64,000 nt of DNA from a virus (taxonomy: Duplodnaviria > Caudoviricetes): positions 596 through 64,595 of IMG/VR virus record IMGVR_UViG_3300042691_027299; one strand, 5' to 3'. The notes below the pieces were generated by a model, which was not told the DNA's origin, made no database searches, and saw only the letters and a program-made list of their open reading frames with translations. Of the stretch, positions 1 to 18,984 are shown piece after piece. How positions within the stretch are numbered: position 1 is the stretch's first letter; every line of letters starts with the position of its first letter. The translations under genes were made by a program, and so were the position numbers.

Positions 1-197
1 ACGGAAGCACTCAGTAACCATTGGTGCGGCGAGTTCGCGTTCCAGGCAACTGTCTGGCAACAATCGCCTCTGGAAAATCAAACGGCCCACATTGCGGACG
101 CTGAAAGCCGGATCAAAGCCCTACAGGAAGAACGCAAGACGCTCAAAGCCCGCGTTGCTGCGCTCAACGCCAAACTCAAGAAAGCAAAGGCCAGCAC

Positions 198-677
198 ATG
201 ACCTGGACCGTCTTGTTGACCGCACCACAGCGCGAGTTTAAGGTTCGCAACGAGCTGACGTTTAACTTCGTGCCTGCCTACGTGCCCATCGAATATCGCG
301 ACAGCCAGCTAGAGCGCGCGAACAAGACGCCCGTTCCGTTGTTTCCGCGCTATGTGTTCGCGGTCATCACCGACTGGGGCATGCTGCGCAATGTCGACGG
401 CCTGCAATCGCGGCCCGTGTATCTAGTTGACGGCAAGCCGGCGATGTTGAGCCAGCGGGAGATCGATGCGGTCGAAGCGCTATCTCAGCCCATCGTGAAA
501 AACGAACGGACGACGCGCCGAATTGGCATAGGCGCGCGCATTCCCATCCGGCGCAATCACCACGCCGTTATTGAGGCCTTAGTTGCCCGGCTCGATGCTC
601 GCGGCCGCCCCGTTGCTGTGTTTGAAATGCTTGGCAAGACACATGAGGTAGTAGTTACGGAGGAAATGATAGACTAG
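198..677 (+). CDS. NusG-family (NGN domain) antitermination factor paralog
   Basis: W.VL.T.PQRE, PLFPRYVF and C-terminal FEMLGK motifs; homologous to 31684-32184; lies just before the late operon. Confidence 0.8.
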   Translation: MTWTVLLTAPQREFKVRNELTFNFVPAYVPIEYRDSQLERANKTPVPLFPRYVFAVITDWGMLRNVDGLQSRPVYLVDGKPAMLSQREIDAVEALSQPIVKNERTTRRIGIGARIPIRRNHHAVIEALVARLDARGRPVAVFEMLGKTHEVVVTEEMID

Positions 678-680
678 CTA

Positions 681-709
681 TTGATTCAGCCCGCAAATCA
701 CGTTAGACG
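681..709 (+). promoter_or_regulatory. Putative late promoter of element A
   Basis: TTGATT-N17-TAGACG with CCGCAAATCA in the spacer; aligns without gaps to 33851-33879. Confidence 0.6.
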
Positions 710-819
710 GGCACACATAGGACGACCGTCGCCCCTGCCGCGTACCATCACCCTCTAGCGCTTGTAATCCGGGCAGCCTCGACGACCCTGCGGACATAGA
801 TTTCCGCCCCCATCCAGAA

Positions 820-1020
820 ATGCGCCCGGACATGACGCCTCAAGCGGTCATCAGCCTTATCGCTGAATGGACCAAACGCATTGGCTTACTCGCTCTCGCC
901 ATTCTTGCCGCTCTGATGGCCGTTAAGGCCCTCGGGGCGCCGATTACTTGGCGAACCCCCAACCTTGACCAGAACGCCGGCATCGCCATGGCCGCGCTTG
1001 CTTACGTGTTGAGCCGATGA
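820..1020 (+). CDS. Small two-TM membrane protein
   Basis: Two hydrophobic helices; near-identical copy at 33995-34183. Confidence 0.75.
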   Translation: MRPDMTPQAVISLIAEWTKRIGLLALAILAALMAVKALGAPITWRTPNLDQNAGIAMAALAYVLSR

Positions 1021-1202
1021 GTGCCATTGACATCGACGACATCGATGAAACCGATCTCGACGACGTTGATTTGGTGTGCCTAGACCTTGCGGAAATCTTC
1101 ATCGCGTTCGGCATCTCATCAAGCCAAGCCCTCGAAGTCATTAAAGAACGTTACCCCGTCATACATATCCAACTGATGTCCGAGTCAGACACCCTCCACT
1201 GA
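1017..1202 (+). CDS. Small acidic hypothetical protein
   Basis: ATGA overlap with upstream gene; homolog at 34180-34347. Confidence 0.75.
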   Translation: MSAIDIDDIDETDLDDVDLVCLDLAEIFIAFGISSSQALEVIKERYPVIHIQLMSESDTLH

Positions 1203-1212
1203 CCGAGGCCCC

Positions 1213-2232
1213 ATGGACCAACTCGCCCCCTTCCGCAAATACTTCCGCTACGCCGCGATCTCATGCTCGATTGCCTCGGCTGTGATGACTGCGTGGTTTG
1301 GTTTTCAACAGAACCCGTATTTCATCCTCGCCGGCATGTGCGCGCTGTTCCTGGTCGCCTGCTCGCTGGCCTCCGATTACATTATGCTGTTTGTCGTTGA
1401 CGCCTGGCGCAGCAGCAACCGCCTCATGGCTGGCGTGGTCGCGCTCGGCGCTGCGTTCGTGTTCAGCCTCAACCTGCTAAGCAACCTCGGCGCCGTGGGC
1501 TGGCAACGGGATGTAACTGCCTCTGCCGCTAAGGTCCAGAACGTCCGGTACGACAACGCGCAGGATCAGGTTGCCGAGAGCCGCGCCTCGCTCGCCATGT
1601 TTGAAAAGCATAAAGCCGACCTGGAAGCGGCAAATGGCTGGTCTGCATCCGTGACCGCCGAAGCACTCCGCGCCCAGCTCGCCAGCGCCAATCTTGCCAT
1701 TGAGCAGGAAGCCGCCAAGGGTGGCTGCAAGGCACGATGCCTCGCCCGCACCAAAGAGCGCGACGACCTCGCCGCTCGCATTGCCATTGCCGAAAAGCGT
1801 GCGACCCTGACCGAACAGATCGAGGCCACCAAGCGCGTGATCGCTCAATATCGCGACAAGGCCGCCACCCATGACAAGGTGGTTGCCGCGCCCGTCAGTC
1901 AGGCCTCGTTTTTCGCGTCCATGGTCAAAATCGATCTGAGCCCATCCGAAGAGGCGACCACATGGACCGATCGCGGCCTCGCCACATGGCTGGCGCTTGG
2001 CCTGTGCATTGCGCCGATGCTGTTTTCATTGCTCGGCTGGCGCTCCGACGACCACACTCCCGAGATTGGGCGGGTTGCCGAAGATAAGGAGCAAGTGATC
2101 TCCCTCACTGCGGCTCCCCCGGTGCCCGCCCAACCCACACAGGGTAAGGACCGCACAATCATCTTTGCCGATGAAATCACCCGCCGTTGGGCAGAGCGCC
2201 CCGACGTACAGCAGTTGCTTAAGGCCGCGTGA
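1213..2232 (+). CDS. Membrane-anchored coiled-coil protein
   Basis: About 3 N-terminal TMs, coiled coil with GGCKARC, C-terminal TM; paralog at 34359-35441. Confidence 0.8.
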   Translation: MDQLAPFRKYFRYAAISCSIASAVMTAWFGFQQNPYFILAGMCALFLVACSLASDYIMLFVVDAWRSSNRLMAGVVALGAAFVFSLNLLSNLGAVGWQRDVTASAAKVQNVRYDNAQDQVAESRASLAMFEKHKADLEAANGWSASVTAEALRAQLASANLAIEQEAAKGGCKARCLARTKERDDLAARIAIAEKRATLTEQIEATKRVIAQYRDKAATHDKVVAAPVSQASFFASMVKIDLSPSEEATTWTDRGLATWLALGLCIAPMLFSLLGWRSDDHTPEIGRVAEDKEQVISLTAAPPVPAQPTQGKDRTIIFADEITRRWAERPDVQQLLKAA

Positions 2233-2296
2233 CTGTTGCACGTGAAACGCGGCTAAGCCGTTTGATTATTTGAAATAAAATCAAAGGAATTCAAAC

Positions 2297-2617
2297 GTGC
2301 GTGGTGGCAAGCGCAGCGGCGCGGGAAGAAAGAAGGGATCAGTCACTAAGGCGACAGTCTATCGCCAAGAGATGCTGGCCCGTGCCGCTGCTGATGGGCT
2401 CACGCCGCTCGAGTTCATGCTGAACGTGCTTCGCGACGAAGAGAAGCCGTTTGATGACAGGTTCGAAGCTGCCAAGGCCGCAGCACCTTATGTGCACCCG
2501 CGCCTTGCCGCAGTTGAGCACAGCGGAGACCAGGACAACCCGCTGTCCGTCATAGTTGCAAGTGGAGTCCCGTCTGAAGACGACGACGATCAACGGCCGA
2601 ACGCACCAAGTCATTGA
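2297..2617 (+). CDS. terS: Terminase small subunit
   Basis: RGGKRSGAGRKKGS N-terminus, TPLEFML and AAKAAAPYVHPRL motifs; directly upstream of terL. Confidence 0.8.
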   Translation: MRGGKRSGAGRKKGSVTKATVYRQEMLARAAADGLTPLEFMLNVLRDEEKPFDDRFEAAKAAAPYVHPRLAAVEHSGDQDNPLSVIVASGVPSEDDDDQRPNAPSH

Positions 2618-3944
2618 TCTCGGCTATCGGCCTCGCGAACAGTTCATAGACTTCCACAAGCGCCGCCAGCGTTGGGCGTGCCTCGTTGCTCATAGACGAG
2701 CCGGCAAGACCGTGGCGTGCGTCATGGACCTCGTGGACAAGGCGCTGAGGTGCAAGAAGCAGGATGGGCGCTTTGCCTACGTGGCGCCTCACTGGAACCA
2801 GGCCAAGGACGTGGCTTGGCTCTATATCAAGCGGTTCACCGCGCCCATTCCAGGCGTGAAGCTCAACGAAAGCGAACTCTACGTTGAGTTCGAACACAAC
2901 AAGGCCCGCGTTCGCCTCGCGGGTGCCGACAACTACGATCGGTTGCGCGGCGCATACCTCGACGGCGTGATCCTTGACGAATACGGGGATATGCACCCGG
3001 CGGCATGGCCTGAAGTCATCCGGCCCATGCTCGCAGACCGCAAGGGATGGGCCACGTTTATCGGCACCCCCAAAGGCCGCAACGATTTCCACGCGAAGTG
3101 GGAGGAAAGCAGGACGATAGACGGCTGGTTTAGCCTCATGCTCCAGGGCTCAACTAGCGGCCTGCTGGACGATGAAGAACTAATCGACATGCGCCGCACC
3201 ATGACGCCGGAGCAGTACGAGCAAGAGATAGAATGCAATTTCGACTCTGCCGTGTTGGGCGCCTACTTCGGCAAGGAAATTGTAGAAGCTGAGCGCGCCG
3301 GCCGGATTACAACTGTAGAGGTCGATCCGGCATTGCCTGTGCATTCGGCATGGGATCTCGGAATCGGCGACAGTACCGCCATCTGGTGCTTCCAGATTGC
3401 TCCCGATGGGGTCCGCGTTGTCGATTGCTACGAGAACAACGCGCAACCGTTGAGCCATTACGTCTCCGTCTTGCGTGAAAAGGGATACCGGGGCCGCCTG
3501 TTTGTGCCTCATGACGCTCGAGCCCGCGAGCTTGGCACCGGGCGCACCCGAGTTGAGACGCTGCAATTGTTGGGGACCGATCCGCACCTAGTCCCTGCGC
3601 ACACGATCATGGACGGCATCAACGGCGCGCGTGTGAGCTTCCCGCGCTTCTGGTTCGATGCTCTGCGTTGCAAACCCGGTATTGAGGCCTTGCGCCAGTA
3701 CCGCGCTGACTATGACGAGAAACTAAAGGTCTTCAAGAACACGCCCAAGCACGACTGGACCAGCCACTACGCCGACGCCTTCCGCTACATGGCCATGGCC
3801 TGGAAGGCAATGCAGCCGCCGCCAGTCGAGAAGTCCCGCAAGGACCAGCTCATTTACGAAGTCAAAGACGGCCGCTTGCAGGCCAACATGACGGTTCGGG
3901 AAATCATCGAATTGAAGAAGAGAAAGCGCCTCGCTGATGGTTGA
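2556..3944 (+). CDS. terL: Terminase large subunit
   Basis: Walker A HRRAGKT, Walker B GVILDEY, FIGTPKG, nuclease WDLG..D and HDWTSHYADAFRY; exact start uncertain. Confidence 0.95.
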   Translation: MQVESRLKTTTINGRTHQVIDLGYRPREQFIDFHKRRQRWACLVAHRRAGKTVACVMDLVDKALRCKKQDGRFAYVAPHWNQAKDVAWLYIKRFTAPIPGVKLNESELYVEFEHNKARVRLAGADNYDRLRGAYLDGVILDEYGDMHPAAWPEVIRPMLADRKGWATFIGTPKGRNDFHAKWEESRTIDGWFSLMLQGSTSGLLDDEELIDMRRTMTPEQYEQEIECNFDSAVLGAYFGKEIVEAERAGRITTVEVDPALPVHSAWDLGIGDSTAIWCFQIAPDGVRVVDCYENNAQPLSHYVSVLREKGYRGRLFVPHDARARELGTGRTRVETLQLLGTDPHLVPAHTIMDGINGARVSFPRFWFDALRCKPGIEALRQYRADYDEKLKVFKNTPKHDWTSHYADAFRYMAMAWKAMQPPPVEKSRKDQLIYEVKDGRLQANMTVREIIELKKRKRLADG

Positions 3945-6234
3945 CGCGACCGGCGGCCAACAGATTGACACGGACGTTAAAGCTCTTGCCCAAGGCATAG
4001 GGCCAACCGATCTGTGGCTTAAGAAGATCGCCAAGGCCAAACTTGACGAGAAACCTTGGCGCACCGAGGCGGCCAGGGCCATTGCCATTTATGAAGGCGA
4101 TGACGAGGCCATCAGCAAGGCCGGCGCCAAGCACATCAGCTTCAACATTTATCATTCGAACATCGAAACCATGGTGCCGGCGGTGTATAATTCATCGCCC
4201 ATCCCGGACATCCGCCGACGCTACGACGACGCGCAGCAGGCCGCCCCGCAGCCAGCCCCGCCGCCCCCAGCGATGGGAGGCCAGCCGCCACAGGTCCAAC
4301 CGCCTGCGATGCCCCCGCAGCAGCCGCAGATGGACATTCACAAGCTCGTGGTGGACGTGATCGAGCGGGCGCTGTCCTACAGCATTGACCAATACGACTT
4401 TGACGGGACAATGCGGTCAACCGTTCGCGGGGCGCTGGTCAGCGGTCGCGGTGTTCCGCGAGTGCGCTACGAGCCCACGGTTGAAGGCGACCAGAAGTCA
4501 TATGAGGAAGTGACCTGCGAGGTTGTGCCGTGGGATCGCTTCATCCGTGGCCCGGCCCGCTCATGGGAGAAGGTGCCGTGGGTCGCATTCGAGCATGACA
4601 TGACCCGTGAGGAGCTTGCGGAACTAGCCGGCCCGGAGAAGGCGGAAGACGCGAGGCTTGACGGCGAAAACACGGGCAAGAAGGGGGACGACGCGCAACC
4701 GGACGCCGGCATCTACAAGACCGTCAAGGTTTATGAGATCTGGGACAAGAAGACGGGCGCGGTCTTTTTCGTTGAGGACAAGAAAGACAGCCAGCCGCTC
4801 AAGCTTCAACCTGACCCGCTGCAGCTTCCGGGCTTTTTCCCGGTGCCGCGTCCTTTGCAGCCGGTTGTGCGCGAAACAAGCCTTACGCCAATCTGCCCCT
4901 ATACGATTTACGGGGCGCTGGTGGACGAGCTGGATCAGATCACCAAGCGCATTGCCAAGCTCGTTAAACAGCTTCGGGTGCGCGGCATCTATGACAGCGA
5001 GTTGAAGGCTGACATTGCGTCGCTTTCATCGGCTGAGGACGGCACATATTTGCCAGCCTCGGATGCCACCCGCTTTGCGCAGGGCGGCGGGCTCGAGAAG
5101 GCTCTGGCGCATTTCCCGATGGAGCCGACAGTGCTCGCCCTGCGCGAGCTGTATGTCCAGCGCGACCAGATTAAACAGACCATTTACGAAGTCACAGGCA
5201 TGGCCGACGTGGTGCGCGGCGCTTCGGACGCCTCCGAAACCGCCACGGCGCAGCAGATCAAGGCCAACTATGCCGGGCTGCGCATTCAGTCGCTGCAAAA
5301 GGAAGTAGCCCGCGTCGCGCGCGATCTGTTTCGCATGAAGGCAGATATTTTCTGCCGCCACTTCTCAGTTGAAAACCTGTCCATGATGACCGGTCTGCCG
5401 GCACACATGGCTGAACCTATCCTACGGTCGCCTGAAATGCGGGCTTACCGGATCGACATCGAAACCGACAGCACCGTTCGAGGCGATGTCACCCGCTCTC
5501 TTGAGCAGATCAATCAATTCATCGAAGGTACGGGCCAGTTTGTGCAATCGGTTGGCGCTTTGGTCCAGACTGTGCCGCCGCTGTTGCAGCCGATGATGGA
5601 CGTTTACGCAGCGTTTGCGCGCAAGTTTGACCTGGGCAAGCAAGCTGAGGACGCGCTTGATCGCATGCCGCAGCTTGTTCAACAGTTTGCCGCTCAACAG
5701 GCCGCAGCGCCGCCGCCCGAGCAAGCCAAAGCCGAAGCCGACGCCAAGGCGCGCGAAGCTGAAATGGGCATGAAGCAAGAAGCGGCGCGAATGGACATGG
5801 AGATGAAGGCGCAAGAGCGCGCCGCCGAACTCCAGCATAAGCAGCAAATGGCCGCGCTTGAGATGCAATCGCGTCAAGAGGCCCATGCCGCCGACATGCA
5901 GATGAAGCAAGAAGCCAACGCGCTGGCCATGCAGGAGCGGGAGCTTGCCGTGGGATCGAAGCGCGAGCTTGCCGACATCGATCGGCAGAAAGCAGCGCGC
6001 GAGGCCGGCATGGTGGAAGCACCGGATGGCTCGATCGTCGATCCGACCGTGACCGCCATTCAAGAAATGGCGCAGGCCGTGACGATGATGACCGCGACGG
6101 TCGCAGAACAGGTCGAGGTGAGTAAGGCGGTGCTTGCCACCGTGGCAGACGGGCAGGGGCGGCGCAAGCGCATGGCCGTTGTCCGTGACAAAGACGGCCG
6201 CATCGCTGGCCTTGATGACATCAGCATGAACTGA
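3937..6234 (+). CDS. Portal protein (long, P22-like podovirus type) with C-terminal coiled coil
   Basis: Follows terL; 765 aa; VYEIWDK and ETATAQQIK motifs; Q/A/M-rich tail. Confidence 0.85.
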   Translation: MVDATGGQQIDTDVKALAQGIGPTDLWLKKIAKAKLDEKPWRTEAARAIAIYEGDDEAISKAGAKHISFNIYHSNIETMVPAVYNSSPIPDIRRRYDDAQQAAPQPAPPPPAMGGQPPQVQPPAMPPQQPQMDIHKLVVDVIERALSYSIDQYDFDGTMRSTVRGALVSGRGVPRVRYEPTVEGDQKSYEEVTCEVVPWDRFIRGPARSWEKVPWVAFEHDMTREELAELAGPEKAEDARLDGENTGKKGDDAQPDAGIYKTVKVYEIWDKKTGAVFFVEDKKDSQPLKLQPDPLQLPGFFPVPRPLQPVVRETSLTPICPYTIYGALVDELDQITKRIAKLVKQLRVRGIYDSELKADIASLSSAEDGTYLPASDATRFAQGGGLEKALAHFPMEPTVLALRELYVQRDQIKQTIYEVTGMADVVRGASDASETATAQQIKANYAGLRIQSLQKEVARVARDLFRMKADIFCRHFSVENLSMMTGLPAHMAEPILRSPEMRAYRIDIETDSTVRGDVTRSLEQINQFIEGTGQFVQSVGALVQTVPPLLQPMMDVYAAFARKFDLGKQAEDALDRMPQLVQQFAAQQAAAPPPEQAKAEADAKAREAEMGMKQEAARMDMEMKAQERAAELQHKQQMAALEMQSRQEAHAADMQMKQEANALAMQERELAVGSKRELADIDRQKAAREAGMVEAPDGSIVDPTVTAIQEMAQAVTMMTATVAEQVEVSKAVLATVADGQGRRKRMAVVRDKDGRIAGLDDISMN

Positions 6235-6243
6235 GGGCGACTT

Positions 6244-6675
6244 ATGACAGCCATTTCCGACACAACCGAAAACGCTATTCTCAATCTGGTGTTCCGGGCC
6301 ACCGCTTGGGCCAACTACGCAGACAACGCGGCAACGTCGCCGGAAACGAATATCGTCGTTGCGCTTGCGACTGCTGATTACACCGACAGCGGCACGCTTT
6401 CGTCGAACGAGACGACTTATACGTCATACGCTCGCGTGAACGTCGCGCGATCGACCGGATGGAACGCGGCTTCTGGCGGGTCGACTTCGCCAGCAGCAAC
6501 AATTTCATTCCCGGCGGGGACCGGCGGATCTGGCACGGTCACACATTTCGCAACCGGCAAGAGCGGAGGCGGCGCAGCGGCGGTGCTTTGGTACGGAACT
6601 GTGAGTCCCAACATAGTCACTGGCAACGGGGTGACTCCGCAGCTCTCCACGGCCACGACCATCACCTTGGCTTGA
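6244..6675 (+). CDS. Putative virion appendage/fibre-associated protein
   Basis: Thr/Gly/Ser-rich beta protein; near-identical to 63007-63438. Confidence 0.7.
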   Translation: MTAISDTTENAILNLVFRATAWANYADNAATSPETNIVVALATADYTDSGTLSSNETTYTSYARVNVARSTGWNAASGGSTSPAATISFPAGTGGSGTVTHFATGKSGGGAAAVLWYGTVSPNIVTGNGVTPQLSTATTITLA

Positions 6676-6679
6676 CGAC

Positions 6680-7138
6680 ATGTCGATTGCAACCGCTGTT
6701 CGTCGCTGTCTCGTGGATCTCGATGTGCCGGGTATTCGCGCGCTGTGGGCGAAGATCTCGCCGCATCTGCCGCAACCCAAGTCTGATGCCGATACGCTGG
6801 CAGCACTTCACGCCGCGCGCACGGCCTCGGAAAGCGTGCCGCTGCGGATGCGGGCCTATTCGCATCGGTGGCTGACCGAGCGGCAATTGCCATCACAATT
6901 GCCTGACCGCTTGAAACCAAGCGCGGAGCAGATTTGCCCGCGCGTGGCCATGTCGGTTGGCATTGCGGTTGGCTCGCCCATCCCGGTCGTGCGCGATGGC
7001 ATTCGGGGTGCCATGGAGTACGCGGTTCATGACTGCTATGCCAATGGCGATACTGACCCGGCGATCGTCAAGCCGCAAATGATGGAAGCGCGCAGACGGG
7101 AACGCAAGGCGCTCGGCATCATCGAGCGAGGAGAATAA
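6680..7138 (+). CDS. Conserved phage hypothetical protein
   Basis: Near-identical to 63442-63900. Confidence 0.8.
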   Translation: MSIATAVRRCLVDLDVPGIRALWAKISPHLPQPKSDADTLAALHAARTASESVPLRMRAYSHRWLTERQLPSQLPDRLKPSAEQICPRVAMSVGIAVGSPIPVVRDGIRGAMEYAVHDCYANGDTDPAIVKPQMMEARRRERKALGIIERGE

Positions 7139-7588
7139 ATGCCGGCAAATACAGACCCCATTTATACCAGGACGCCAGACATCAGCATTGCAGGCTCGGT
7201 GGTTGGCTCAAGCGCCAACACCGCAACGGATGGAACGGGCGCCAACAGCTATCTCGTTTATACGGCGGACGCGACCAACGGCAGCTATGTGCGGTCGATT
7301 ATCTTCAAGCCGATTAGCACAATCGCAGCCACGGTGGCGCGGGTGTTCTGGTGCTCGAATACGGGCTCATTCACGCCCGGCACGACCAACACAGCGGCCA
7401 ACTCTACAATCCTCGCTGAAATCACCATTGCAGCTTGGACGGCGAGCAACACCACGGCCAGCCCGCAATATGAACTGCAAATCAACATGGGCATGCCGGC
7501 AAGCACCAAGCTATTCGTCACGTTCGGCACGTCCACGGGCGCCGGCACTACGGGATTTAATCCGTTGGTCATTGCAGGGAAATACTGA
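7139..7588 (+). CDS. Putative structural beta-rich protein
   Basis: In operon; homolog begins at 63901. Confidence 0.7.
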   Translation: MPANTDPIYTRTPDISIAGSVVGSSANTATDGTGANSYLVYTADATNGSYVRSIIFKPISTIAATVARVFWCSNTGSFTPGTTNTAANSTILAEITIAAWTASNTTASPQYELQINMGMPASTKLFVTFGTSTGAGTTGFNPLVIAGKY

Positions 7589-7803
7589 TGGCATGGGTCT
7601 TCTGGCGGATACGCTTCAACGGCGGCGACACGTTCGGCTATCAAGTCATGAACGAAAACCTTGAGCCTCGGACGCCGTGCGCGATTTTCAAAGACGACGG
7701 CACGCCAGATCCGAACTGCGGCGACTACACGACCATAGATTCCGGCACCGAGCCTCACGTGGGCGTGACGCCGCCAGCATGGGCGCCCGACCTCGATGCT
7801 TGA
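7588..7803 (+). CDS. Small hypothetical protein
   Basis: TGATG coupling to the upstream gene; overlaps the start of the next gene. Confidence 0.6.
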   Translation: MAWVFWRIRFNGGDTFGYQVMNENLEPRTPCAIFKDDGTPDPNCGDYTTIDSGTEPHVGVTPPAWAPDLDA

Positions 7804-8707
7804 CGGTTTTGGACTGCCGAAATCACAGCCGTTTTCGTGGGAGGTATTCTACCCACCGAACAGCGCCACCACTACGGAAGGTTGGCGCTCGTGGAAAAAG
7901 CCGCGCGGCGCAAGCATGGTTTATATTATGATGATTGCGGCTGGTGGCGGCGGTGGTGGTGGTGTGTCTGGCAACGGCACCACGGGCGCTGGTGGCGGTG
8001 GCTCGGGTGGCATGTCGCGCTGGTTTGGTCCTTCGTTTGCGTTGCCCGACATGCTGTTCGTGCGCGCAGGCAGCGGCGGCGCGGGTGGTGCGGCGGCAGG
8101 CGCAGGAACAACAGGCACGACAAGCTTTGTGTCCGTGCAACCAAACAATACGGGCGCTAACCTCATTATGTCGCAGGCCGGCGGCGGCGGCGGCGCGTCG
8201 GCGACCACGGCGGGAACGGCAGGCCCAATCGGAAGCTCCGGAAATTTTGCATGGGGCGCGTTAGGCTTGTGGGTTTCAATCCAAGGCCAAGCCGGTGCGG
8301 CGGGTGCAAACGCCAGCAACGGAACAGGAGTTAGCGTCACGTTTGGCGGCTCTGGCATAACTCTATGCGGCGGCGCGGGTGGCGGCAATGGAACGGGCTC
8401 GGGAGGCGCAGTAACGGGAGCCGGCTTGGTGCCGACAATTGCGGGCGCTACCACGACGAACCCCGGCAACCCCGGATTTCAGGCAAACCGACGAATTGAC
8501 TTTGCCGACGTGCGCGCCGGCTTTCCTCCGTTGCTCTTCACGGGCGGCGCGGGCGGCGGTGGCGCTGGTGCTGCGACGGCTGGCCGTGGCGGTGATGGGG
8601 CTTATGGATCGGGCGGCGGTGGCGGCGGCGGCACAAACAACGCGGCAGGCGTTGGTGGTGCTGGGGGCCGTGGTGGTGATGGCCTCATCATTATAGGGGC
8701 GTGGTAA
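7796..8707 (+). CDS. Glycine-rich domain protein (fibre/adhesin-like)
   Basis: W.KP.GA.MV...IAAGGGGG start, GGGG runs, GG.GGDGLIII end. Confidence 0.8.
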   Translation: MLDGFGLPKSQPFSWEVFYPPNSATTTEGWRSWKKPRGASMVYIMMIAAGGGGGGGVSGNGTTGAGGGGSGGMSRWFGPSFALPDMLFVRAGSGGAGGAAAGAGTTGTTSFVSVQPNNTGANLIMSQAGGGGGASATTAGTAGPIGSSGNFAWGALGLWVSIQGQAGAAGANASNGTGVSVTFGGSGITLCGGAGGGNGTGSGGAVTGAGLVPTIAGATTTNPGNPGFQANRRIDFADVRAGFPPLLFTGGAGGGGAGAATAGRGGDGAYGSGGGGGGGTNNAAGVGGAGGRGGDGLIIIGAW

Positions 8708-9072
8708 TGTCTTGGGGATTTTACGATCGCGTCAAGGACACGTCGACAACCACCGGAACGGGCACTGTAACCGTAAGCGGCACTGCGCCCACGGGTTATC
8801 AGACGTTCTCGGCTGTGTATGCGGTCGGGGATCGCGTTCCCTACGTGATCGAGCATCAATCGGCAAACGAATGGGAAACCGGACGCGGCACGTATACGGC
8901 GGCTAACCAGATCGAGCGCACGGAAGTCTGGTCTAGTACGAACTCCAACAACGCAGTGAACTTTTCGGCGGGCACCAAAAACGTTTTCGTGGACGCGATC
9001 TCGTTCTTCCTGAACGACGTGGACACGCACGGAATGAGCTTGGCCCGTTCTAACTTCCAGGCGCTGCCCTAA
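8707..9072 (+). CDS. Fibre-associated protein (DRVK.TSTTTGTG family)
   Basis: DRVKDTSTTTGTG, WETGRGTY and VNFSAGTKNVF motifs. Confidence 0.7.
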   Translation: MSWGFYDRVKDTSTTTGTGTVTVSGTAPTGYQTFSAVYAVGDRVPYVIEHQSANEWETGRGTYTAANQIERTEVWSSTNSNNAVNFSAGTKNVFVDAISFFLNDVDTHGMSLARSNFQALP

Positions 9073-10496
9073 TGGCGCTTGGCCATCGCCCAATCTCATC
9101 GCAGCCGATTGCGGGTCTTGAGAATGCCGCCGCGTCGTCTGTTGGGACGGGCACCGCTTCAGGGTCCGGGTCCGCGAGTGCGGTTGGATTATCCATTGTT
9201 ACGGCGGTTGGCACTGCGGCGGCTTCTGGTGCCGCATCTGCTGTCGGAGCGGCGCTAGGGATTGGTGTTGGCTCTGCGGCTGGATCTGGAACGGCGTCCG
9301 GTGTTGGTGTTGCCGCTGCGATTTCGGTCGGTTCAGCGTCGGGATCTGGAACGGCTTCCGCCGTTGGTCGGTCCAACGCAGCCGGGGCAGGAACGGCCGC
9401 TGGCACAGGCACGGCATCCGGTGTTGGTGCGTCGACTGCACGCTCTGACGGATCGGCCTCGGGCGCTGGCGCTGCGTCGGGCACGGGCGCCTCGACTGCG
9501 CGTGCTGACGGCTCCGCAAACGGTACGGGCACGGCCTCCGCTGTTGGCGCAGCCGCCACCTTAGCGGCCGGATCGGCCGCAGGATCGGGCACCGCTTCTG
9601 GTGTTGGTGCCCCGCTTGCGATCGGCGTTGGCAGTGCTGCCGGCACGAGTTCTGCGTCGGGCGTCTCTGTTGCCGGAGCTTCGGCCGGCACAGCGAGCGG
9701 AACCGGTACGGCCTCGGGTGTTGGTCAGGCCAATGCACTCGCGGCGGGTGCGGCCACAGGCACTGGCACTGCATCGGGTGTCGGCAACGCCAACTTCGCA
9801 GGCGTTGGCAGTGCGTCGGCTACAGGTGCCGCGTCTGGCGTTGGTCGTGCGAACTTCACCGGCACGGGCTCTGCGGCAGGAGCGGGAACGGCTTCGGGTG
9901 TTGGTCGGGCGTCAAGCGCTGGCGTGGGCAGTGCGGCCGGAACCGGCGCAGCAACTGCTACGGGTGCAGCGCTCGCCACGGGCACGGGCTCCGCATCGGG
10001 CACAGGCGCAGCCTCGGGTGTAAGCCTTGCCGGCGGCACTGGCGTTGGCACTGCGGCTGGAACCAGCACGGCCTCGGCCGTTGGGCAATCCACCGCGATT
10101 GCGACAGGACTGGCGCAAGGCTCCGGCTCGGCCGAGGCCACGGGATCTGGATCGAGCAGCCGGCCGCCCAAGGCGGAAACCGGCGGCGCCGTTGTGGGTT
10201 CGGGCCGCTGGCGCCGGGCCGATGATGATACGGTTCACCTGCGGGCACAGGGAACAACCGGCCGGGGCCGAACGCCAGCGGTCTCTATCGAAGTCGGCCC
10301 GCCAAGCGTCGAGCTTGAGGCAGAGTGCGCGGAAGGCCGGGGCGTTACCTCGGATGTTGGTCTTACCCAGATTGTGCCGCTTGGCGTGGTGGCGTCGATC
10401 TCGGCCAAGTCCCGGACGGGTGCCGCCAAGGTGCGCACCGATGACACCATCGAAGTGTTGCGAATCATTGAAATGCTGACAAAGCGGGCAGCATAA
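9072..10496 (+). CDS. Gly/Ala/Ser repeat fibre-like protein
   Basis: About 17 repeats of 20 aa (GSAAGSGTASGVGxxxxxxx). Confidence 0.8.
   Translation: MALGHRPISSQPIAGLENAAASSVGTGTASGSGSASAVGLSIVTAVGTAAASGAASAVGAALGIGVGSAAGSGTASGVGVAAAISVGSASGSGTASAVGRSNAAGAGTAAGTGTASGVGASTARSDGSASGAGAASGTGASTARADGSANGTGTASAVGAAATLAAGSAAGSGTASGVGAPLAIGVGSAAGTSSASGVSVAGASAGTASGTGTASGVGQANALAAGAATGTGTASGVGNANFAGVGSASATGAASGVGRANFTGTGSAAGAGTASGVGRASSAGVGSAAGTGAATATGAALATGTGSASGTGAASGVSLAGGTGVGTAAGTSTASAVGQSTAIATGLAQGSGSAEATGSGSSSRPPKAETGGAVVGSGRWRRADDDTVHLRAQGTTGRGRTPAVSIEVGPPSVELEAECAEGRGVTSDVGLTQIVPLGVVASISAKSRTGAAKVRTDDTIEVLRIIEMLTKRAA
9150..10150 (+). repeat. Degenerate 60-bp coding tandem repeat (~17 units)
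   Basis: 20-aa periodicity read from the translation. Confidence 0.8.
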
Positions 10497-10505
10497 ACAG
10501 TACCC

Positions 10506-10547
10506 CTTGACAACTAAATATGCTAGCTTTCGCCTCGACTGATTTGC
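10506..10547 (+). promoter_or_regulatory. Conserved regulatory block upstream of the tail fibre gene
   Basis: CTTGACA-N11-TA..TTCGC...GACTGATTTGC; same spacing at 62501-62542. Confidence 0.55.
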
Positions 10548-10648
10548 GCAGGACCGACGCTCTGTTTCGTCGATAATCCTCCCGGTCTTCCCCCCTTCCA
10601 TGTCGTGCCGTTGCGTCGCGTTTTGATCAAAACACGCGAGGTCTGCGC

Positions 10649-11827
10649 ATGACTGTTGCCACGACCACCTATGCAGCGTTGGAATATGCTGGGAATAGCG
10701 CCACCACGGCGTTTGCCGTCTCGTGGCCATTCCTGACCGGATCGCTCGTTGTCACGCTGATCGGTGCCGATGGTGTCGAGACCGTCCAAACGATCACCAC
10801 TCATTACACGGTGTCGGGGGGAGGCGCTTCGACGCCGGCCACGGGCACGGTAACGATGCTTACGGCGCCCGCAACAGGAACCACGCTGCGCATTGAGCGC
10901 GTCACGCCGCAGACCCAGTCGACAAGCTGGGGTGCGTTTGATGCTTTCCCACAAGCCACGGTCGAATACAGCTTCGACAAGCTGACGCTCATGGTTCAGG
11001 AACGGGCCACCAAGGCTGAGCTTAACGATGTCGGCGAACTTAGCCTGGCAATTGGCACAGTGACGACGGGTGCGGCCGGCAGCAGCGCCAGCGCCACGTT
11101 GACGGGAGACGCACCGGATTACACGCTGAATCTGACCATCCCGCGTGGCAACACGGGTCTCAGCGGAAATGGGACTGGAGATGTTGTTGGACCCGCTTCG
11201 GCAACTGCCAATGGCATTGTGCTGTTTGACGGGACCACAGGCAAGCTCGTCAAGGACAGCACGTATACGATCACGGCGGCGGGCGCGGCTCTGCTGGACG
11301 ACGCCAACGCGGCGGCGCAACGCACGACGCTCGGCCTGGGCTCACTCGCCACGGCGTCCACGGTTGGCACCAGCGGCATCGATGCGGATGCTGTGACCTA
11401 CGCGAAGCTGCAAAACGTCTCAGCGACCAGTCGCGTGCTGGGGCGCGTGACCTCGGGCGCGGGCGATGTTGAGGAAGTGACGGCAACGCAGGTGCTGGAT
11501 TTTATCAGCAGCACGCAAGGCGCAATCCTTTACCGCAATGCGTCCGCGTGGGTGGCCTTATCGCCGGGCACCAGTGGGCAGTTTCTCAAGACCAACGGAG
11601 CCGGCGCTAATCCGGCATGGGAGACGCAGGCGGGCGGGCAATCCGACACGCGGCTCGGCAGTGAGGCCAGTACGGCAACTACGGTGGATAACACGGACTA
11701 CAGGGTCCCGACCGGCAACGTGATGACGGGCGTGCGCACGGGCACCAGTTTGGTCCTTGGCTTCATCTATTATCGCCCGCTCCAGAAAAATCTCGGAGCC
11801 GGATTTGTGACGGTGAGCCAGCTATGA
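10649..11827 (+). CDS. Tail fibre protein with T7 gp17-like N-terminal anchor
   Basis: YAGNSATTAF...APATGTTLRIERVTP...FDKLTLMVQE anchor; C-terminal YYRPLQK receptor-binding motif. Confidence 0.85.
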   Translation: MTVATTTYAALEYAGNSATTAFAVSWPFLTGSLVVTLIGADGVETVQTITTHYTVSGGGASTPATGTVTMLTAPATGTTLRIERVTPQTQSTSWGAFDAFPQATVEYSFDKLTLMVQERATKAELNDVGELSLAIGTVTTGAAGSSASATLTGDAPDYTLNLTIPRGNTGLSGNGTGDVVGPASATANGIVLFDGTTGKLVKDSTYTITAAGAALLDDANAAAQRTTLGLGSLATASTVGTSGIDADAVTYAKLQNVSATSRVLGRVTSGAGDVEEVTATQVLDFISSTQGAILYRNASAWVALSPGTSGQFLKTNGAGANPAWETQAGGQSDTRLGSEASTATTVDNTDYRVPTGNVMTGVRTGTSLVLGFIYYRPLQKNLGAGFVTVSQL

Positions 11828-12516
11828 TCATCAATCACGGACGATTCGAGCTTTACACCCCCGACCTGCCCGAAGATCATCCGCACGTGCGGGCCAAAGC
11901 GCTGCATCTGCGCAACGCCAAGGGCGTAGACTTTTATTCCATTGCCCACGCCAAGCCCTTGCCGGGCAGCACATTTGCCCAGGTTTTGCGGGGGCGAGTC
12001 AATTCGGTGTCTACGGACCCATCGTCGCTGTTCCCGGTTGATTGCATCCTGATTGAGACGGATCAGCCGGTTGAAGTAGGTTGGACGTATGACGGCGACA
12101 CTCTGGCGCCCTACGTGCCAGCGTTGGACGACGTAAAAGCGCAATTGATCCGGCGTCTCGATGCTGATTCAGAGCGCGTTCGTCAATCCTATCTGACGGC
12201 TGGGGCGGGTCAGATTTTGACCTACCGCGAGAAAGTAGATCAAGCGCTGGCGGTTTTAGATCTTGGTGAGGCGGCGGCTAATGCGTTGTCGGACGCGGAC
12301 TGCATTGCGCAGTTTCCGATGTTGGCCGCGTCTATCGGAATCGAAGCCGACACCCTGCACGCCGCAGCGGTGCTGATCGCCAGTCGAAATGAATCGTGGT
12401 CCTCAATCGGCGGGCTCATTGAGCGCACGCGGTTGCAAGGCAAGCAAGCAATTCGCGCGGCCGCAGACGCAGCCGCAGCGCAGGCAGCTTATGAGGCCGT
12501 GACATGGCCGATGTGA
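11824..12516 (+). CDS. Tail fibre assembly/chaperone protein
   Basis: Follows the fibre gene; GWTYDG motif and C-terminal ..VTWP. Confidence 0.7.
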   Translation: MIINHGRFELYTPDLPEDHPHVRAKALHLRNAKGVDFYSIAHAKPLPGSTFAQVLRGRVNSVSTDPSSLFPVDCILIETDQPVEVGWTYDGDTLAPYVPALDDVKAQLIRRLDADSERVRQSYLTAGAGQILTYREKVDQALAVLDLGEAAANALSDADCIAQFPMLAASIGIEADTLHAAAVLIASRNESWSSIGGLIERTRLQGKQAIRAAADAAAAQAAYEAVTWPM

Positions 12517-12707
12517 GAGCATGGCGACAACGCAAGCCTGGCAGTCACACGCGCGAGATCGTGCAGGAGCGATTGCCGGCGGAACTCATGCAGGCGGTAG
12601 CCGAACTGCATAACGAAGTCACGCAGTTGCAGGCGCGAATGACCCGCATCGAGCAGTTTCTAGAGATGGTCAGTGCTGAGTACCGCAAGCGCGCGGAGGC
12701 TGCATGA
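12513..12707 (+). CDS. Small coiled-coil hypothetical protein
   Basis: Coupled between the chaperone and endolysin genes (start could be 12504). Confidence 0.5.
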   Translation: MRAWRQRKPGSHTREIVQERLPAELMQAVAELHNEVTQLQARMTRIEQFLEMVSAEYRKRAEAA

Positions 12708-13462
12708 CACCGAACAAGATTTCCGACGCCGGCCTGGATTTTATCAAGGGGTTTGAGGGCTACCATCGCGCACTACCAAATGGTGATTGCGTCGCCTACC
12801 GCTGCCCAGCGGGTGTGTTGACGTTGGGCTATGGCTGCACGGTCGGCATCAAACCTGGCATGGTCTGGACGCGACAGCAAGCCGAAGATGCCTTGCGCCG
12901 GGAGATCTCGACGTTCGAGGCGGGCGTGGTGCGCCTGGTCACGGTGCCCATCAACCAAAATGAATACGATGCGCTGGTGTCGTTTGCATATAACTGCGGG
13001 CTCGGCGCGCTCCAAAACTCCACCATCCTGCGCAAACTCAATGCGGGCGATCGGGTTGGCGCGGCGGCGGCGTTCAAAATGTGGACCAAGGGCGGGGGGC
13101 GGGTGTTGCCGGGCCTCGTGCGCCGCCGCGATCAGGAAGCCGCGCTATTCTTGACGCCAATGGTGCCTGCCGAGGATGAGGAGCCGGCCCAGCCCGACAT
13201 GCCACAGGCGGTGGAGCCCGTGCCCGAGCCGCCCAAGGCGGCGACTGTGGCAACCGTTGGCGCGGCCGGCGGTGCATCCATTGGAACGGTCGTCAACAGC
13301 ATCCCCGCCGCTCCCGATCTAAGCGCGGCCGTTGGCTGGCAAGGGTTTGCGCAAACGCTTTCCGGGCTTTCCGGGTTTGTGACCTCGCGACCGCTGTTGG
13401 TGTTGGCCGTGATTGCGATTGTGGTTGGCGTTTGGCTGCTGCCGAAATGGAGGCAAGCATGA
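12704..13462 (+). CDS. Endolysin, GH24 phage lysozyme with C-terminal hydrophobic segments
   Basis: FIKGFEG, AYRCPAGVLTLGYG, DALVSFAYNCG and GLVRRR..E..LF motifs. Confidence 0.92.
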   Translation: MTPNKISDAGLDFIKGFEGYHRALPNGDCVAYRCPAGVLTLGYGCTVGIKPGMVWTRQQAEDALRREISTFEAGVVRLVTVPINQNEYDALVSFAYNCGLGALQNSTILRKLNAGDRVGAAAAFKMWTKGGGRVLPGLVRRRDQEAALFLTPMVPAEDEEPAQPDMPQAVEPVPEPPKAATVATVGAAGGASIGTVVNSIPAAPDLSAAVGWQGFAQTLSGLSGFVTSRPLLVLAVIAIVVGVWLLPKWRQA

Positions 13463-13692
13463 GCGCAGTGTGGGTCTGGATCATCGGGCCAATTGGCCGA
13501 TGGGTGGTGACAGCACTAGGAGTGGCCGGCCTTGTCGCGGCGTTCGCGGCCGATCAACGGGGCAAGGGCGCAGAAAAAGAGCGCGCCAGGATCGAGAAGA
13601 AGGCCGAGCAAAATGTCAAAAAAGCTGATGATGTCCGCGATCGTGTGCGCCGTGACACTGGCGGGATGCGCGACCCCGCCCGTCGTGACTGA
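13459..13692 (+). CDS. Putative i-spanin (Rz-like)
   Basis: N-terminal TM plus coiled coil after the lysozyme; overlapped by a lipoprotein gene. Confidence 0.6.
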   Translation: MSAVWVWIIGPIGRWVVTALGVAGLVAAFAADQRGKGAEKERARIEKKAEQNVKKADDVRDRVRRDTGGMRDPARRD

Positions 13693-13864
13693 CACCGGGA
13701 TCAAATCGTTTAAGCCGATTAACTGGTCGTGCCTCGATACGCCGGAAACGCGCAAGCAGGTGATTGAGCACAACAGCGTGCACGCGACGCTGAGCACGGG
13801 CAAGCCGACGATTTACAAAGACGACTGCAAGGCTCCGACAAAGATCGCGAAGGCGAGCCAATGA
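13613..13864 (+). CDS. Putative o-spanin lipoprotein (Rz1-like)
   Basis: MSKKL...LAGC lipobox; starts inside the previous gene in another frame. Confidence 0.65.
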   Translation: MSKKLMMSAIVCAVTLAGCATPPVVTDTGIKSFKPINWSCLDTPETRKQVIEHNSVHATLSTGKPTIYKDDCKAPTKIAKASQ

Positions 13865-14101
13865 ATGACTGGATTGAACGGGTTGAAGCCGCCATTCTCG
13901 CCGAACGAAATCAGCCGCGAGCACCGCATCACGGTGATCGAGATGAACGCGGAAGCACAACAGAAATCGCTTGGCCAGCACCACGAGCGCATCACGTACC
14001 TAGAGCGGGCAGTACAGGGGTTAATCTACGCGACGGCCTCGTTAGCCGTAATCAAGTCCGACAACCTGGTCGACGCGATTCTCAAAGTGGCGACGAAATG
14101 A
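13865..14101 (+). CDS. Small coiled-coil/TM protein (holin-like, uncertain)
   Basis: RITxxE repeats and a hydrophobic C-terminus at the end of the lysis module. Confidence 0.45.
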   Translation: MTGLNGLKPPFSPNEISREHRITVIEMNAEAQQKSLGQHHERITYLERAVQGLIYATASLAVIKSDNLVDAILKVATK

Positions 14102-14170
14102 AAAGCCGAATGGTGTTCCATTCGCTGTTGGCTGTTGGCATGGTTGTGGCGGCCATGGCGTTCCAGATCG

Positions 14171-14527
14171 TCAGCCGGTTGTAGGTTCGTTGCCGTAGGC
14201 GTTCGGCCCTGGCTGGCCTTTCAGGCAACACATCACGAACAGGACGATGAAGCCTGCCGGCACCAGCAGCAACAACTGCCACCAGCCGGTGCGCCCGGTG
14301 TCGTGCAGGCGCCGGGTGCCGAGGGCGAGGGTAGGGAAGCCTACGATCAAGCCCAAAATGCCATAAGATAGCCGTATGGTTGGCTCGTCAGGCATAACGA
14401 TTGCAATAAGCGACATCGGGATCATTAAGAACAGATGCCACCATAGAAACTCGGCTCGGCTTGAGCGCCCGGCATAGTCGGTGTATCGAGACATAACTGA
14501 GACGATCGATCTGCCAAAGCCGCCCAT
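14171..14527 (-). CDS. DUF805 (YhaH/YhaI-like) membrane protein
   Basis: GRSSRAEFLWW, RRLHDTGRTGWW and GPNAYG motifs. Confidence 0.9.
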   Translation of the reverse strand: MGGFGRSIVSVMSRYTDYAGRSSRAEFLWWHLFLMIPMSLIAIVMPDEPTIRLSYGILGLIVGFPTLALGTRRLHDTGRTGWWQLLLLVPAGFIVLFVMCCLKGQPGPNAYGNEPTTG

Positions 14528-14540
14528 CTGTCATCCCCAC

Positions 14541-14921
14541 TTAATCGTTGTCCCATGTAATGCGGGCGTACTCGGCCCACTTCTCAACAAGCCTCGGCAA
14601 AAGCGGTTCAAATTCGGGCGTCGGGAAGCATGTGCGCGGGCTCGTCCCGTAGGCACATAACCCGGCTGTGCACAGCATCTCGCGGAACATCTTGCCCGCA
14701 AGATCGTCTCGATGAAACGTTCGGTCCCGAACATCCGTCAGAACATCTAGGGCCAATTCGTCAAAGTCGCTGCTATAGGTGCCATACAACGAGGGGAACA
14801 GATCCCAAGGATCGAAGTGCGCCGCGTGGTCGTACATTTCCTCGCCTGCCGGCGGCGCGGGCTTTTCGAGCATACGTGCAACCGCTGCCGCCGCGTCCTT
14901 GTCCTTCTGGAACAGCGTCAC
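14541..14921 (-). CDS. Hypothetical protein
   Basis: GTG start after GGAGG; contains LCAYGTSPR. Confidence 0.65.
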   Translation of the reverse strand: MTLFQKDKDAAAAVARMLEKPAPPAGEEMYDHAAHFDPWDLFPSLYGTYSSDFDELALDVLTDVRDRTFHRDDLAGKMFREMLCTAGLCAYGTSPRTCFPTPEFEPLLPRLVEKWAEYARITWDND

Positions 14922-14935
14922 TGCCAAGCCTCCTT

Positions 14936-15163
14936 TTATGTGTTCGGCTTTGCCGCACCGCGCACCCACAACTCGAAACCCGCTTCCTCTAGCAATCGGC
15001 GCAAGATCAGGCCCCGGTCGATAGCATCACCGACATCACGCCGACCCACGTCACCAGCGGCCAGCGCAATCGCGCCAAGCCTAGAAGCGAGCACGTTATC
15101 CATAGAGGACGTGAGCGCATGACGGTTGCGGGGATCGTGCACACCGAATGCCGGGTTGAGCAT
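14936..15163 (-). CDS. Hypothetical protein
   Basis: AAGGAGG RBS; in the minus-strand array. Confidence 0.6.
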   Translation of the reverse strand: MLNPAFGVHDPRNRHALTSSMDNVLASRLGAIALAAGDVGRRDVGDAIDRGLILRRLLEEAGFELWVRGAAKPNT

Positions 15164-15183
15164 GATTGCCTCCTTGTCTTTGG

Positions 15184-15417
15184 TTAGGCATCGTTCCAGC
15201 GCATAAAGTAGTGCGCTCGGTGCACGCCATCGAACCTTCGCGTACTCCAATACCAATACAGCGTGTCTGCGTACAAAAGCTCTCCCTCCGGCACAGGATA
15301 TCCCAAAAGATGGTCTCTACGGTTCCACGCAAGACACACGTCGAACATGCCGGGATCGCACCAAGACGGACCAATTTTGATCGCGAAGTTGGAACCCTCG
15401 AATAAGATCACCGTCAC
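15184..15417 (-). CDS. Hypothetical protein
   Basis: AAGGAG RBS and GTG start. Confidence 0.55.
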   Translation of the reverse strand: MTVILFEGSNFAIKIGPSWCDPGMFDVCLAWNRRDHLLGYPVPEGELLYADTLYWYWSTRRFDGVHRAHYFMRWNDA

Positions 15418-15424
15418 GTCTCCT

Positions 15425-15595
15425 TTATCGACCAAGCCGCGCGGGGGACACGTCCCAATAAGCGTAATCTCCCGCTGCTGGCAGCATCCATGTGCACCGC
15501 TTCGCGATCGGCCAAGGCAGCGTCAGATAAACGTAATAGGCAACGGCACCTTTGCTCCATGTAAGCCACCCGCGCAAGCCGGTCCATCGTGACAT
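15425..15595 (-). CDS. Small Trp-rich hypothetical protein (56 aa, not in the ORF track)
   Basis: AAGGAGGGAG RBS; MSRWTGLRGWLTW...RLGR*; fills the gap in the array exactly. Confidence 0.55.
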   Translation of the reverse strand: MSRWTGLRGWLTWSKGAVAYYVYLTLPWPIAKRCTWMLPAAGDYAYWDVSPARLGR

Positions 15596-15605
15596 TTCTC
15601 CCTCC

Positions 15606-15863: not shown

Positions 15864-15879
15864 GGTTCCCTCCATGGGT

Positions 15880-16140: not shown

Positions 16141-16151
16141 TGCGTCTCTCC

Positions 16152-16430: not shown

Positions 16431-16437
16431 TCCTCCT

Positions 16438-16623: not shown

Positions 16624-16635
16624 CGCGCTCCCTCC

Positions 16636-16836: not shown

Positions 16837-16847
16837 CGTCCCCTCCC

Positions 16848-17701: not shown

Positions 17702-17710
17702 GTTCCTCTC

Positions 17711-18292: not shown

Positions 18293-18315
18293 TTGCGTAA
18301 AGGGTACGAAATCGC

Positions 18316-18970: not shown

Positions 18971-18984
18971 CGGAAAGGCCACAA

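Follow-up and report, generated by a model that had tools for sequence, protein, structure and literature searches.

Capsid-less packaging and fibre genes in a caudoviricete record are most likely a composite of two podophages joined within a shared fibre cassette

The DNA analysed here, hereafter the window, is a stretch of 64,000 nucleotides (nt) covering bases 596-64595 of the IMG/VR record IMGVR_UViG_3300042691_027299 (Caudoviricetes), a record of 64,595 bases classed as linear, which starts 595 bases before window position 1 and ends at window position 64000. In an initial annotation, positions 198-14101 were described as an element, A, which lies beside a second phage, B, and encodes packaging, fibre and lysis proteins but no capsid, scaffold, tail-tube or ejection protein; it was read either as a satellite that borrows the capsids and tails of B, or as a chimera produced by a crossover across a fibre cassette shared with B. 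The description is accurate for the sequence as assembled, in which PHROGs and Pfam scans of 20 open reading frames (ORFs) of 198-14101 recovered no major capsid, scaffold, tail-tube or ejection family, but it fails for A as a single element: 'element A' is not one element, and there is a switch of lineage inside the cassette gene at 7139-7588. The favoured explanation, to which a probability of roughly 0.6 is assigned, is that the record is an assembly chimera in which the left arm of an Mx8-like phage is joined to approximately one turn of B. The capsid-less feature itself is then most likely not real. Were it real, an element that has a portal and terminase of its own but no capsid would be a new kind of phage satellite; as a composite of two phages is most likely, the satellite claim should not enter a satellite catalogue.

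Lineage switch inside the fibre cassette

The cassette genes around the switch, and the second copy of the cassette at the end of the record, are as follows.

6244-6675, + strand: GP4 fibre-I-like (gp80-like) protein of 143 amino acids (aa), first cassette gene (PF23140, E-value 4.7e-16)
6680-7138, + strand: 152-aa protein, second cassette gene, small and with no named family
7139-7588, + strand: hybrid 149-aa fibre-cassette gene, with the lineage switch between 7361 and 7366, or up to 7404
7588-7803, + strand: 71-aa protein, the window variant of which is on 4 contigs and the common variant (P0012) on 14
63007-64000, + strand: the cassette copy of B, with the gp80-like gene, the 152-aa gene and the first 33 codons of the 149-aa gene, cut by the record end

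Homology between the two copies (6244-7238 against 63007-64000, 85% nt identity) starts exactly at the gp80-like ATG, and the gp80-like and 152-aa proteins are 97% and 95% identical in amino acids to those of B despite the 15% divergence of the DNA. The codon differences between the copies were mostly synonymous (synonymous:non-synonymous 58:4 in the gp80-like gene and 52:8 in the 152-aa gene), and strong purifying selection acts on these genes in the one phage as in the other. The spacing of the two copies is 56,762-56,763 nt. Positions 7367-64000 plus 128 unseen bases amount to 56,762 nt, which is one repeat period, and this period contains every temperate-phage module.

The third cassette gene is a hybrid. 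Its 149-aa protein is identical to proteins P0007 and P0009 over residues 1-74 and to protein P0006 over residues 77-149, differing from P0007 only at residues 77, 90, 115, 117, 119 and 143 and from P0006 only at residues 12, 71 and 74, while residues 1-33 of P0006 are identical to those of the truncated copy of B at 63901-63999. This residue pattern makes the gene a clean two-parent hybrid, being of the type of the left-arm phage (hereafter A') to codon 74 and of B type from codon 77. The stretch common to both parents at the crossover is 6 nt for P0007 and P0006, or 44 nt if the left parent was P0009-like. Exact protein look-ups were run against approximately 15 billion proteins, and among the 21 contigs carrying a member of the 90% cluster of this protein the hybrid occurred on one, the window's own, the others being divided into 14 (P0007), 4, 1 and 1. 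The right-side alleles are joined to the N-terminus of B in P0006, and the left side is joined to the P0007-type continuation on 14 contigs.

Prevalence also differed between the two sides of the switch. Exact proteins of the left arm were found on 10-15 contigs, and for all but a 339-aa protein these included Logan or NCBI sources: 13 contigs for the protein of 198-677, 13 and 12 for the following 66-aa and 61-aa proteins, 10 for a 106-aa protein (longest contig 42,374), 15 for the portal, and 15 and 14 for the gp80-like and 152-aa proteins. Exact proteins of the right arm (71 aa, fibre, fibre-assembly-like, 67 aa, endolysin and DUF805) were on 2-4 contigs from JGI/IMG and ENA only, among them 3 for the fibre, 2 for the fibre-assembly-like protein and 2 for the endolysin; exact proteins of B were on 1-2 contigs, again from JGI/IMG and ENA only.

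Further evidence came from Logan contigs of four runs (X1, X4, X10 and X12, from four studies), which were aligned to window positions 1-20000. Positions 2000-8000 were matched by at least 20 runs among those listed, 15 of them with half or more of its words, and one of the aligned runs may be the source sample. Contigs of X4 (from 6314) and X1 (from 6280, with 28.2 as the sole depth at that place) equal the window up to 7366, then differ from it at 7367, 7405, 7406, 7414 and 7426, and their fit ends at 7458. These differences are the P0007 changes (S77T, T90S), so that the common variant is physically tied to the gp80-like and 152-aa genes of the left arm. The boundary between portal and cassette (6234/6244), near which the initial annotation had envisaged a misassembly at about 6240, was by contrast crossed with 0 differences by contigs of all four runs (X1 2125-6309, X10 5900-6742, X12 6009-6434 and X4 5802-6302), and a misassembly at that point is rejected. 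The long 0-difference contigs of X1 had a depth of 31-45 on 1-7128 and of 4-8.4 on 9972-20000, a comparison that is weak in being one of per-contig k-mer depths. The other three runs had almost no cover at 95% likeness or above on 8672-20000, but the runs were selected by 2000-8000, so this was not used as evidence. Many apparent joints at 7962-8632, present in all four runs, had sides of 18-23 letters within glycine-codon repeats and were treated as repeat noise.

The left arm, its relatives and its probable capsid genes

Upstream of the cassette, the left arm consists of the following genes.

198-677, + strand: NusG-like late antiterminator, 159 aa (PF02357, E-value 5.1e-07; phrog_6386, E-value 3.7e-13)
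820-1202, + strand: two small ORFs of 66 and 61 aa, common to B (33986-34344), with approximately 90% aa and 79% nt identity
1213-2232, + strand: 339-aa protein of no Pfam or PHROG family, 47% identical to a 360-aa protein of B (34359-35441)
2297-2617, + strand: 106-aa ORF, putative small terminase by its position upstream of TerL
2556-3944, + strand: large terminase (TerL), Mx8-like, full length, 462 aa (phrog_2, E-value 3.1e-39; PF03237)
3937-6234, + strand: portal, Mx8-like, full length, 765 aa (phrog_12082, E-value 2.7e-151)

The + strand ORFs from 198 to approximately 13864 are close-packed and open, as originally described. The left arm fits an Mx8-like module, with TerL and portal of that clade preceded by a conserved small ORF and a 339-aa gene. 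TerL is 79% identical to that of locus L009 (residues 7-461) and 72% identical to that of locus L017 (residues 2-462), and the portal is 33% identical to that of MW202489, 27% identical to that of Mx8 and 60-67% identical to its best IMG/VR relatives. Megablast of the left arm against phages gave no match. The observation that TerL and portal are unrelated in sequence to those of B was borne out, BLASTP detecting no similarity between the two pairs (best E-values 0.18 and 1.6). Relatives of the portal were collected at 72 IMG/VR loci, at which the downstream genes were mapped, and at 64 metagenome-contig and 6 genome-contig loci, for which identity only was taken; the best identity was 67% in IMG/VR and in the metagenome contigs and 43% in the genome contigs. 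Homologues of the 339-aa protein lie upstream of TerL in 16 of the 72 IMG/VR loci (L010 and L017 among them), which indicates that 1213-6234 in its entirety is native to the Mx8-like phage type. From its hydrophobic ends and a central coiled-coil-like part, as predicted from the sequence, the 339-aa protein may have membrane and coiled-coil segments.

The gene at 198-677 had been labelled terS, a label rejected here as its PF02357 and phrog_6386 matches identify a NusG-like antiterminator. The 106-aa ORF at 2297-2617 is the likelier terS, with homologues of 39-55% identity directly upstream of TerL in 11 related loci and a function assigned from position only.

No capsid gene was recovered from the ORFs of 198-14101 by further searches. 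Searches of PDB sequences with 6680-7138, 7139-7588 and 7796-8707 gave no useful match and no capsid, and a 474-aa protein had no fold above TM 0.25 in the Atlas. A hidden capsid among the family-less ORFs was considered and rejected, the large candidates being a glycine-rich protein (303 aa) without a capsid match in PDB sequences and a repeat protein (474 aa) without one in the Atlas, and the matter being decided on other grounds. The sole 'head protein' label in A is phrog_240 on 6244-6675, an ORF that Pfam groups with a GP4 fibre. By tblastn and family scans, the scaffold, capsid and tail tubular A and B genes of the Mx8-like module are absent downstream of the window portal.

These missing genes are present in most of the relatives. 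An Mx8-type capsid gene lies downstream of the portal at 53 of the 72 IMG/VR portal-relative loci; at another 16 the sequence ends less than 3 kb further on, and the 3 exceptions lack an Mx8-type capsid match, namely L052 (another capsid type, after a second portal), L075 (a different gene order) and L072 (3.4 kb downstream). The cassette of A follows the portal at none of the 72, and the capsid-less order, for which a search of other genomes had been proposed, was likewise found at none. It had been proposed that, should the relatives all retain capsid genes, the arrangement would be a one-off deletion and not a satellite; with 53 of 72 retaining them and 16 ending within 3 kb, it is a one-off at best.

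A candidate for the left arm's own capsid was found in similarity searches of a 5.8-billion-protein set with the capsid and tubular A proteins of L009, the closest relative, in which 120 matches were listed per query. The Mx8-type capsid P0049, 85% identical to that of L009, occurs on 14 contigs, the longest of 44,804 bases, from NCBI, JGI, Logan and ENA sources. The same fingerprint of 14 contigs and a longest contig of 44,804 bases is shared by P0007 and P0012, and P0049 was the only one of the 120 listed matches to the L009 capsid to have it. Among the 120 listed matches to the L009 tubular A query, the homologue P0164 occurs on 12 contigs, the longest also of 44,804 bases, from the same four sources. 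Neither P0049 nor P0164 had a tblastn match in the window. The fingerprint match points, indirectly, to a complete Mx8-like phage of approximately 45 kb for the left arm.

In this group, the order of portal, then fibre cassette, then head genes is a normal one. In L143, TerL and portal are followed by a gp80-like gene (68%), which an HNH gene separates from a 152-like gene (47%); two further ORFs then precede the scaffold-sized and capsid genes. In L215 and L216 the portal is followed by 149-like and 303-like genes and then by scaffold (phrog_3927) and capsid (phrog_283) genes, with a 123-like gene before the 149-like gene in L216, detected by tblastn only. In L221, in which no portal was recognised, the Mx8-type capsid gene is preceded by three cassette genes, of the 123-like, 149-like and 303-like kinds. 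A further relative, L025, has a pectate-lyase-like protein directly after the portal. The likeness of the window to the module represented by Mx8, MW202489 and IMG/VR loci L009-L080 thus comprises TerL and portal homology, the small ORF and 339-aa homologue upstream of TerL and, in some members (L143, L215, L216 and L025), receptor-binding genes right after the portal. In Mx8 and MW202489, scaffold (p47) and capsid lie within approximately 1.5 kb of the portal, whereas the window switches instead to the right arm of B.

The first cassette gene resembles fibre I protein gp80 of the Ralstonia podophage GP4 (PF23140, PDB 8jou) at low sequence identity, its match to PF23140 (Gp80) scoring 59.7 bits against a cut-off of 27 over residues 3-123 and its match to PDB entry 8jou_a being weak (E-value 0.016). 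In GP4, a tail-fibre adapter bears more than one set of fibres (PMC11445570). The gp80-like gene is a putative fibre gene in the window, where, unlike gp80 of GP4, it heads a mobile cassette that occupies differing positions in unrelated podophages. In L081 (MW202711), a 39.7-kb podophage, a gp80-like gene at 19992-20420 has tail tubular A on one side and a tail fibre gene on the other, a third genome position for the cassette. In the B-type relative L088, the gp80-like and 152-aa genes (within 10001-13002) are 92% and 98% identical to those of A and are followed by ORFs of 461 aa and at least 253 aa that appear by eye to be enzyme-like and not fibre genes, so that the pair may not always be a fibre cassette. 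At 10491-11162 of L143, an HNH endonuclease gene (PF13392) stands between the gp80-like and 152-like genes and may be a mobile insertion.

Assembly join, recombination or satellite

The hybrid gene, the two parental types, their differing prevalence and the two positions of the cassette are observed; the presence of capsid genes of A' on one molecule with the left arm, and an in silico origin of the join, are inferred. Under the assembly-chimera explanation, an approximately 8-kb left arm of a complete temperate Mx8-like podophage, A', contributing the antiterminator, the 339-aa gene, the putative terS, TerL, the portal and the first fibre-cassette genes, would have been joined to approximately one full turn of B, a podophage unrelated to A' that has head genes of T7 type and encodes a giant internal protein. 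The join would lie in the 149-aa cassette gene, which has nearly the same sequence in both phages, at 7361-7366 or up to 7404. The cassette would stand between portal and scaffold/capsid in A', and after the ejection proteins and before the lysis genes in B, and a path entering from A' and leaving along B consequently skips the capsid and tail genes of A'. Beyond the join the path would run from the fibre and lysis genes of B through its accessory region, its integrase and its early genes to its head-tail block, and would stop on re-meeting the cassette of B, 100 nt into B's own 149-aa gene (64000). The join was most probably made by a metagenome assembler in a population of recombining variants, a reading favoured by the uniqueness of the hybrid, by the unequal prevalence and sources of the two sides, and by a record that looks like one genome with an overhang. 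The crossover across a shared cassette proposed in the initial annotation keeps its logic, given the gene orders of L143, L215, L216 and L221, with its site moved from 6240 to 7361-7366; as the join is in this contig only, it is more likely to be the assembler's than a cell's.

There is a precedent in L052, another chimeric or mosaic record. Over 9,096 nt (TerL, portal, a tail protein and a 134-aa ORF) L052 is 100% identical to L022; the two then diverge, and L052 continues into genes of another phage, namely its second portal (phrog_156) and a capsid gene of phrog_334. The divergence begins at a gene boundary within the receptor-binding region, and both the switch and its site are of the same kind as in the window; the switch in L052 brings in a second portal and a capsid, whereas at that in the window the capsid genes are lost and a second genome follows in full.

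Several points weigh against an assembly chimera. A k-mer graph error would need a longer stretch than the 6 nt shared by the two commonest parents, unless other variants were present in the source sample, and there are natural recombinants within the cassette (P0009 and P0015), making real recombination plausible. The high-depth X1 contigs agree with the window at 7939 and 8179, so that the two lineages are interleaved mosaics and not cleanly distinct. Only the last 13 nt of the record are identical to 7226-7238, and there is no long exact repeat at its end; a record end at an exact A/B repeat was considered and set aside, since with 13 identical nt and a mismatch approximately every 11 nt it carries no information. 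The evidence at the join comes from Logan contigs of four runs and not from raw reads of the source sample, and the link between the left arm and P0049 is deduced from equal contig counts, sources and longest-contig figures.

The main competitor, a less probable one, is a real one-off event, in which a phage of A' type and a phage or prophage of B type, present together in a cell, would have undergone homologous recombination within the cassette that they share and so produced a defective recombinant without head and tail genes, for example a prophage beside B, and not an adapted element. Such an event is suggested by a crossover that is clean, in frame and within an identical stretch of 6-44 nt, by the other natural mosaics of cassette genes (P0009, P0013 and P0015), by the full length of every left-arm ORF, and by the strong purifying selection on the cassette in both phages (58:4 and 52:8), which makes shared hosts probable; moreover, A and B are not separated by host DNA, an arrangement compatible with tandem prophages and with a circle alike. 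It is opposed by the origin of the hybrid protein from a single contig of the 21 with a member of its 90% cluster, by the differing prevalence and sources of the two sides, and by the occurrence of the arrangement in no relative. For a tandem, the right arm of one B-type phage would in addition have to stand upstream of another B from which it has diverged by 15%, which takes more events than an error in a graph path.

The satellite proposal is very improbable. It would require a B-type backbone with terminase, portal, fibre and lysis genes of its own that borrows the capsid, scaffold and tail of B, its own portal nucleating B procapsids that could be filled only by its own terminase. The genes for TerL, portal and putative terS, all intact, bear no relation to those of B, the flanks of A are collinear with B, and the assembled gene set would confer packaging specificity and host recognition without a shell, all of which is compatible with such a lifestyle. 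However, the capsid-less order occurs in none of the relatives mapped: the placing of the cassette of A after the portal was seen at 0 of 72 IMG/VR loci, the junction pattern had no exact match in IMG/VR, as was also the case for a 60-nt pattern from 7240-7299 in a set from which near-identical records may be missing, and the portal relatives at the 72 IMG/VR, 64 metagenome and 6 genome loci are all at or below 67% identity. Further, the usual continuation of the left arm, on 14 contigs, shares its fingerprint with an Mx8-type capsid and tubular A. The portal of A is Mx8-type and the capsid and scaffold of B are T7-type, and within the portions of the literature retrieved in a search there was no such cross-family pairing of portal and capsid. 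It is equally improbable that the hybrid is a real transmissible molecule, a B-type temperate backbone with its head-tail block swapped for a foreign terminase-portal pair; such a molecule would spread by seeding B procapsids with its own portal, as a satellite based on an exchanged portal and the reverse of those phage-inducible chromosomal islands (PICIs) that form capsids.

The resemblance of A to known satellites (PICIs, capsid-forming PICIs, P4-like elements and PICI-like elements (PLEs)) lies in a partial virion gene set beside a complete phage, as assembled. Known satellites recur as families of conserved architecture, whereas the order of A recurs nowhere searched and its join is unique to one contig. 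Capsid-forming PICIs have their own capsid and packaging genes and borrow tails, a gene set that is the reverse of that of A.

Whether joined by an assembler or in a cell, the two sides are two unrelated temperate podophages, with Mx8-like and T7-like head genes respectively, that share a late-leader region and also, at differing positions in their gene orders, a receptor-binding cassette of 80-97% identity. Crossovers are naturally to be expected in a cassette of this kind, by which metagenome assemblers can be misled, and 'complete' viral records that are longer than one genome and have no terminal repeats merit the same check.

The shared leader, the right arm and phage B

Collinearity of A and B in the late-leader region, at approximately 80% nt identity, was found at record bases 55-395 and at window positions 808-1212 and 1534-1836. 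A NusG-like gene (phrog_6386, 'antiterminator') precedes the late genes in both phages, at 198-677 and 31630-32184. The mutual identity of the two proteins is 30%, compared with approximately 80% for the DNA flanking their genes on both sides. A family-less protein of 339-360 aa lies upstream of the terminase genes in both of these unrelated phage types.

Near-identical copies of 2000-8000 were present in runs labelled fungus metagenome (2019), freshwater metagenome (2017, 2024 and 2025) and metagenome (2024), indicating that the left-arm phage or its host is widespread. Among species-representative genomes, no portal relative exceeded 43% identity.

The remaining features of the window, from the right arm through B, are listed below.

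7796-8707, + strand: 303-aa glycine-rich protein, no family
8701-9072, + strand: 123-aa protein, small, no family
9072-10496, + strand: 474-aa repeat protein with G/S/A/T repeats of approximately 20 residues, no family
10649-11827, + strand: tail fibre with a T7-type N-terminus, 392 aa (PF03906; phrog_1640, E-value 1.6e-23)
11824-12516, + strand: fibre-assembly-like protein, 230 aa (phrog_136)
12504-13864, + strand: lysis block with a 67-aa ORF, an endolysin (12704-13462) and spanin-like ORFs (PF00959, E-value 5.8e-42; phrog_7; phrog_1026; phrog_1275)
14171-21759, strand not assigned: accessory region ahead of the integrase of B, in which only DUF805 (14171-14527) and T5orf172/MUG113 (21199-21759) were recognised
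21689-22702, - strand: integrase of B (phrog_1, E-value 6.7e-55)
36115-62492, + strand: head-tail block of B (phrog_2, phrog_332, phrog_3742/458, phrog_3437, phrog_376 and phrog_7)

The genes at 7588-10496 are the fibre-cassette genes of a B-type right arm. Only residues 1 to approximately 125 of the 303-aa protein are conserved among its relatives, and the residue repeats of the 474-aa protein are encoded by a 60-nt unit present in at least 10 copies at 9264-10090. No host genes were recognised between the lysis block and the integrase, and no tRNA was found in the window; the left end of A, with its early region, and the right end of B fall outside the record. The integrase is followed by Erf-like, exonuclease and replication genes and then by the NusG-like gene of B. 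The head-tail block of B contains TerL, a T7-type portal, a scaffold/protease-like protein, a capsid and tail tubular B, together with a 1101-aa lysozyme-bearing internal protein and a giant ORF of 3527 aa (48760-62492), which has a 2672-aa relative in L088 at 35-55% identity over the matched parts.

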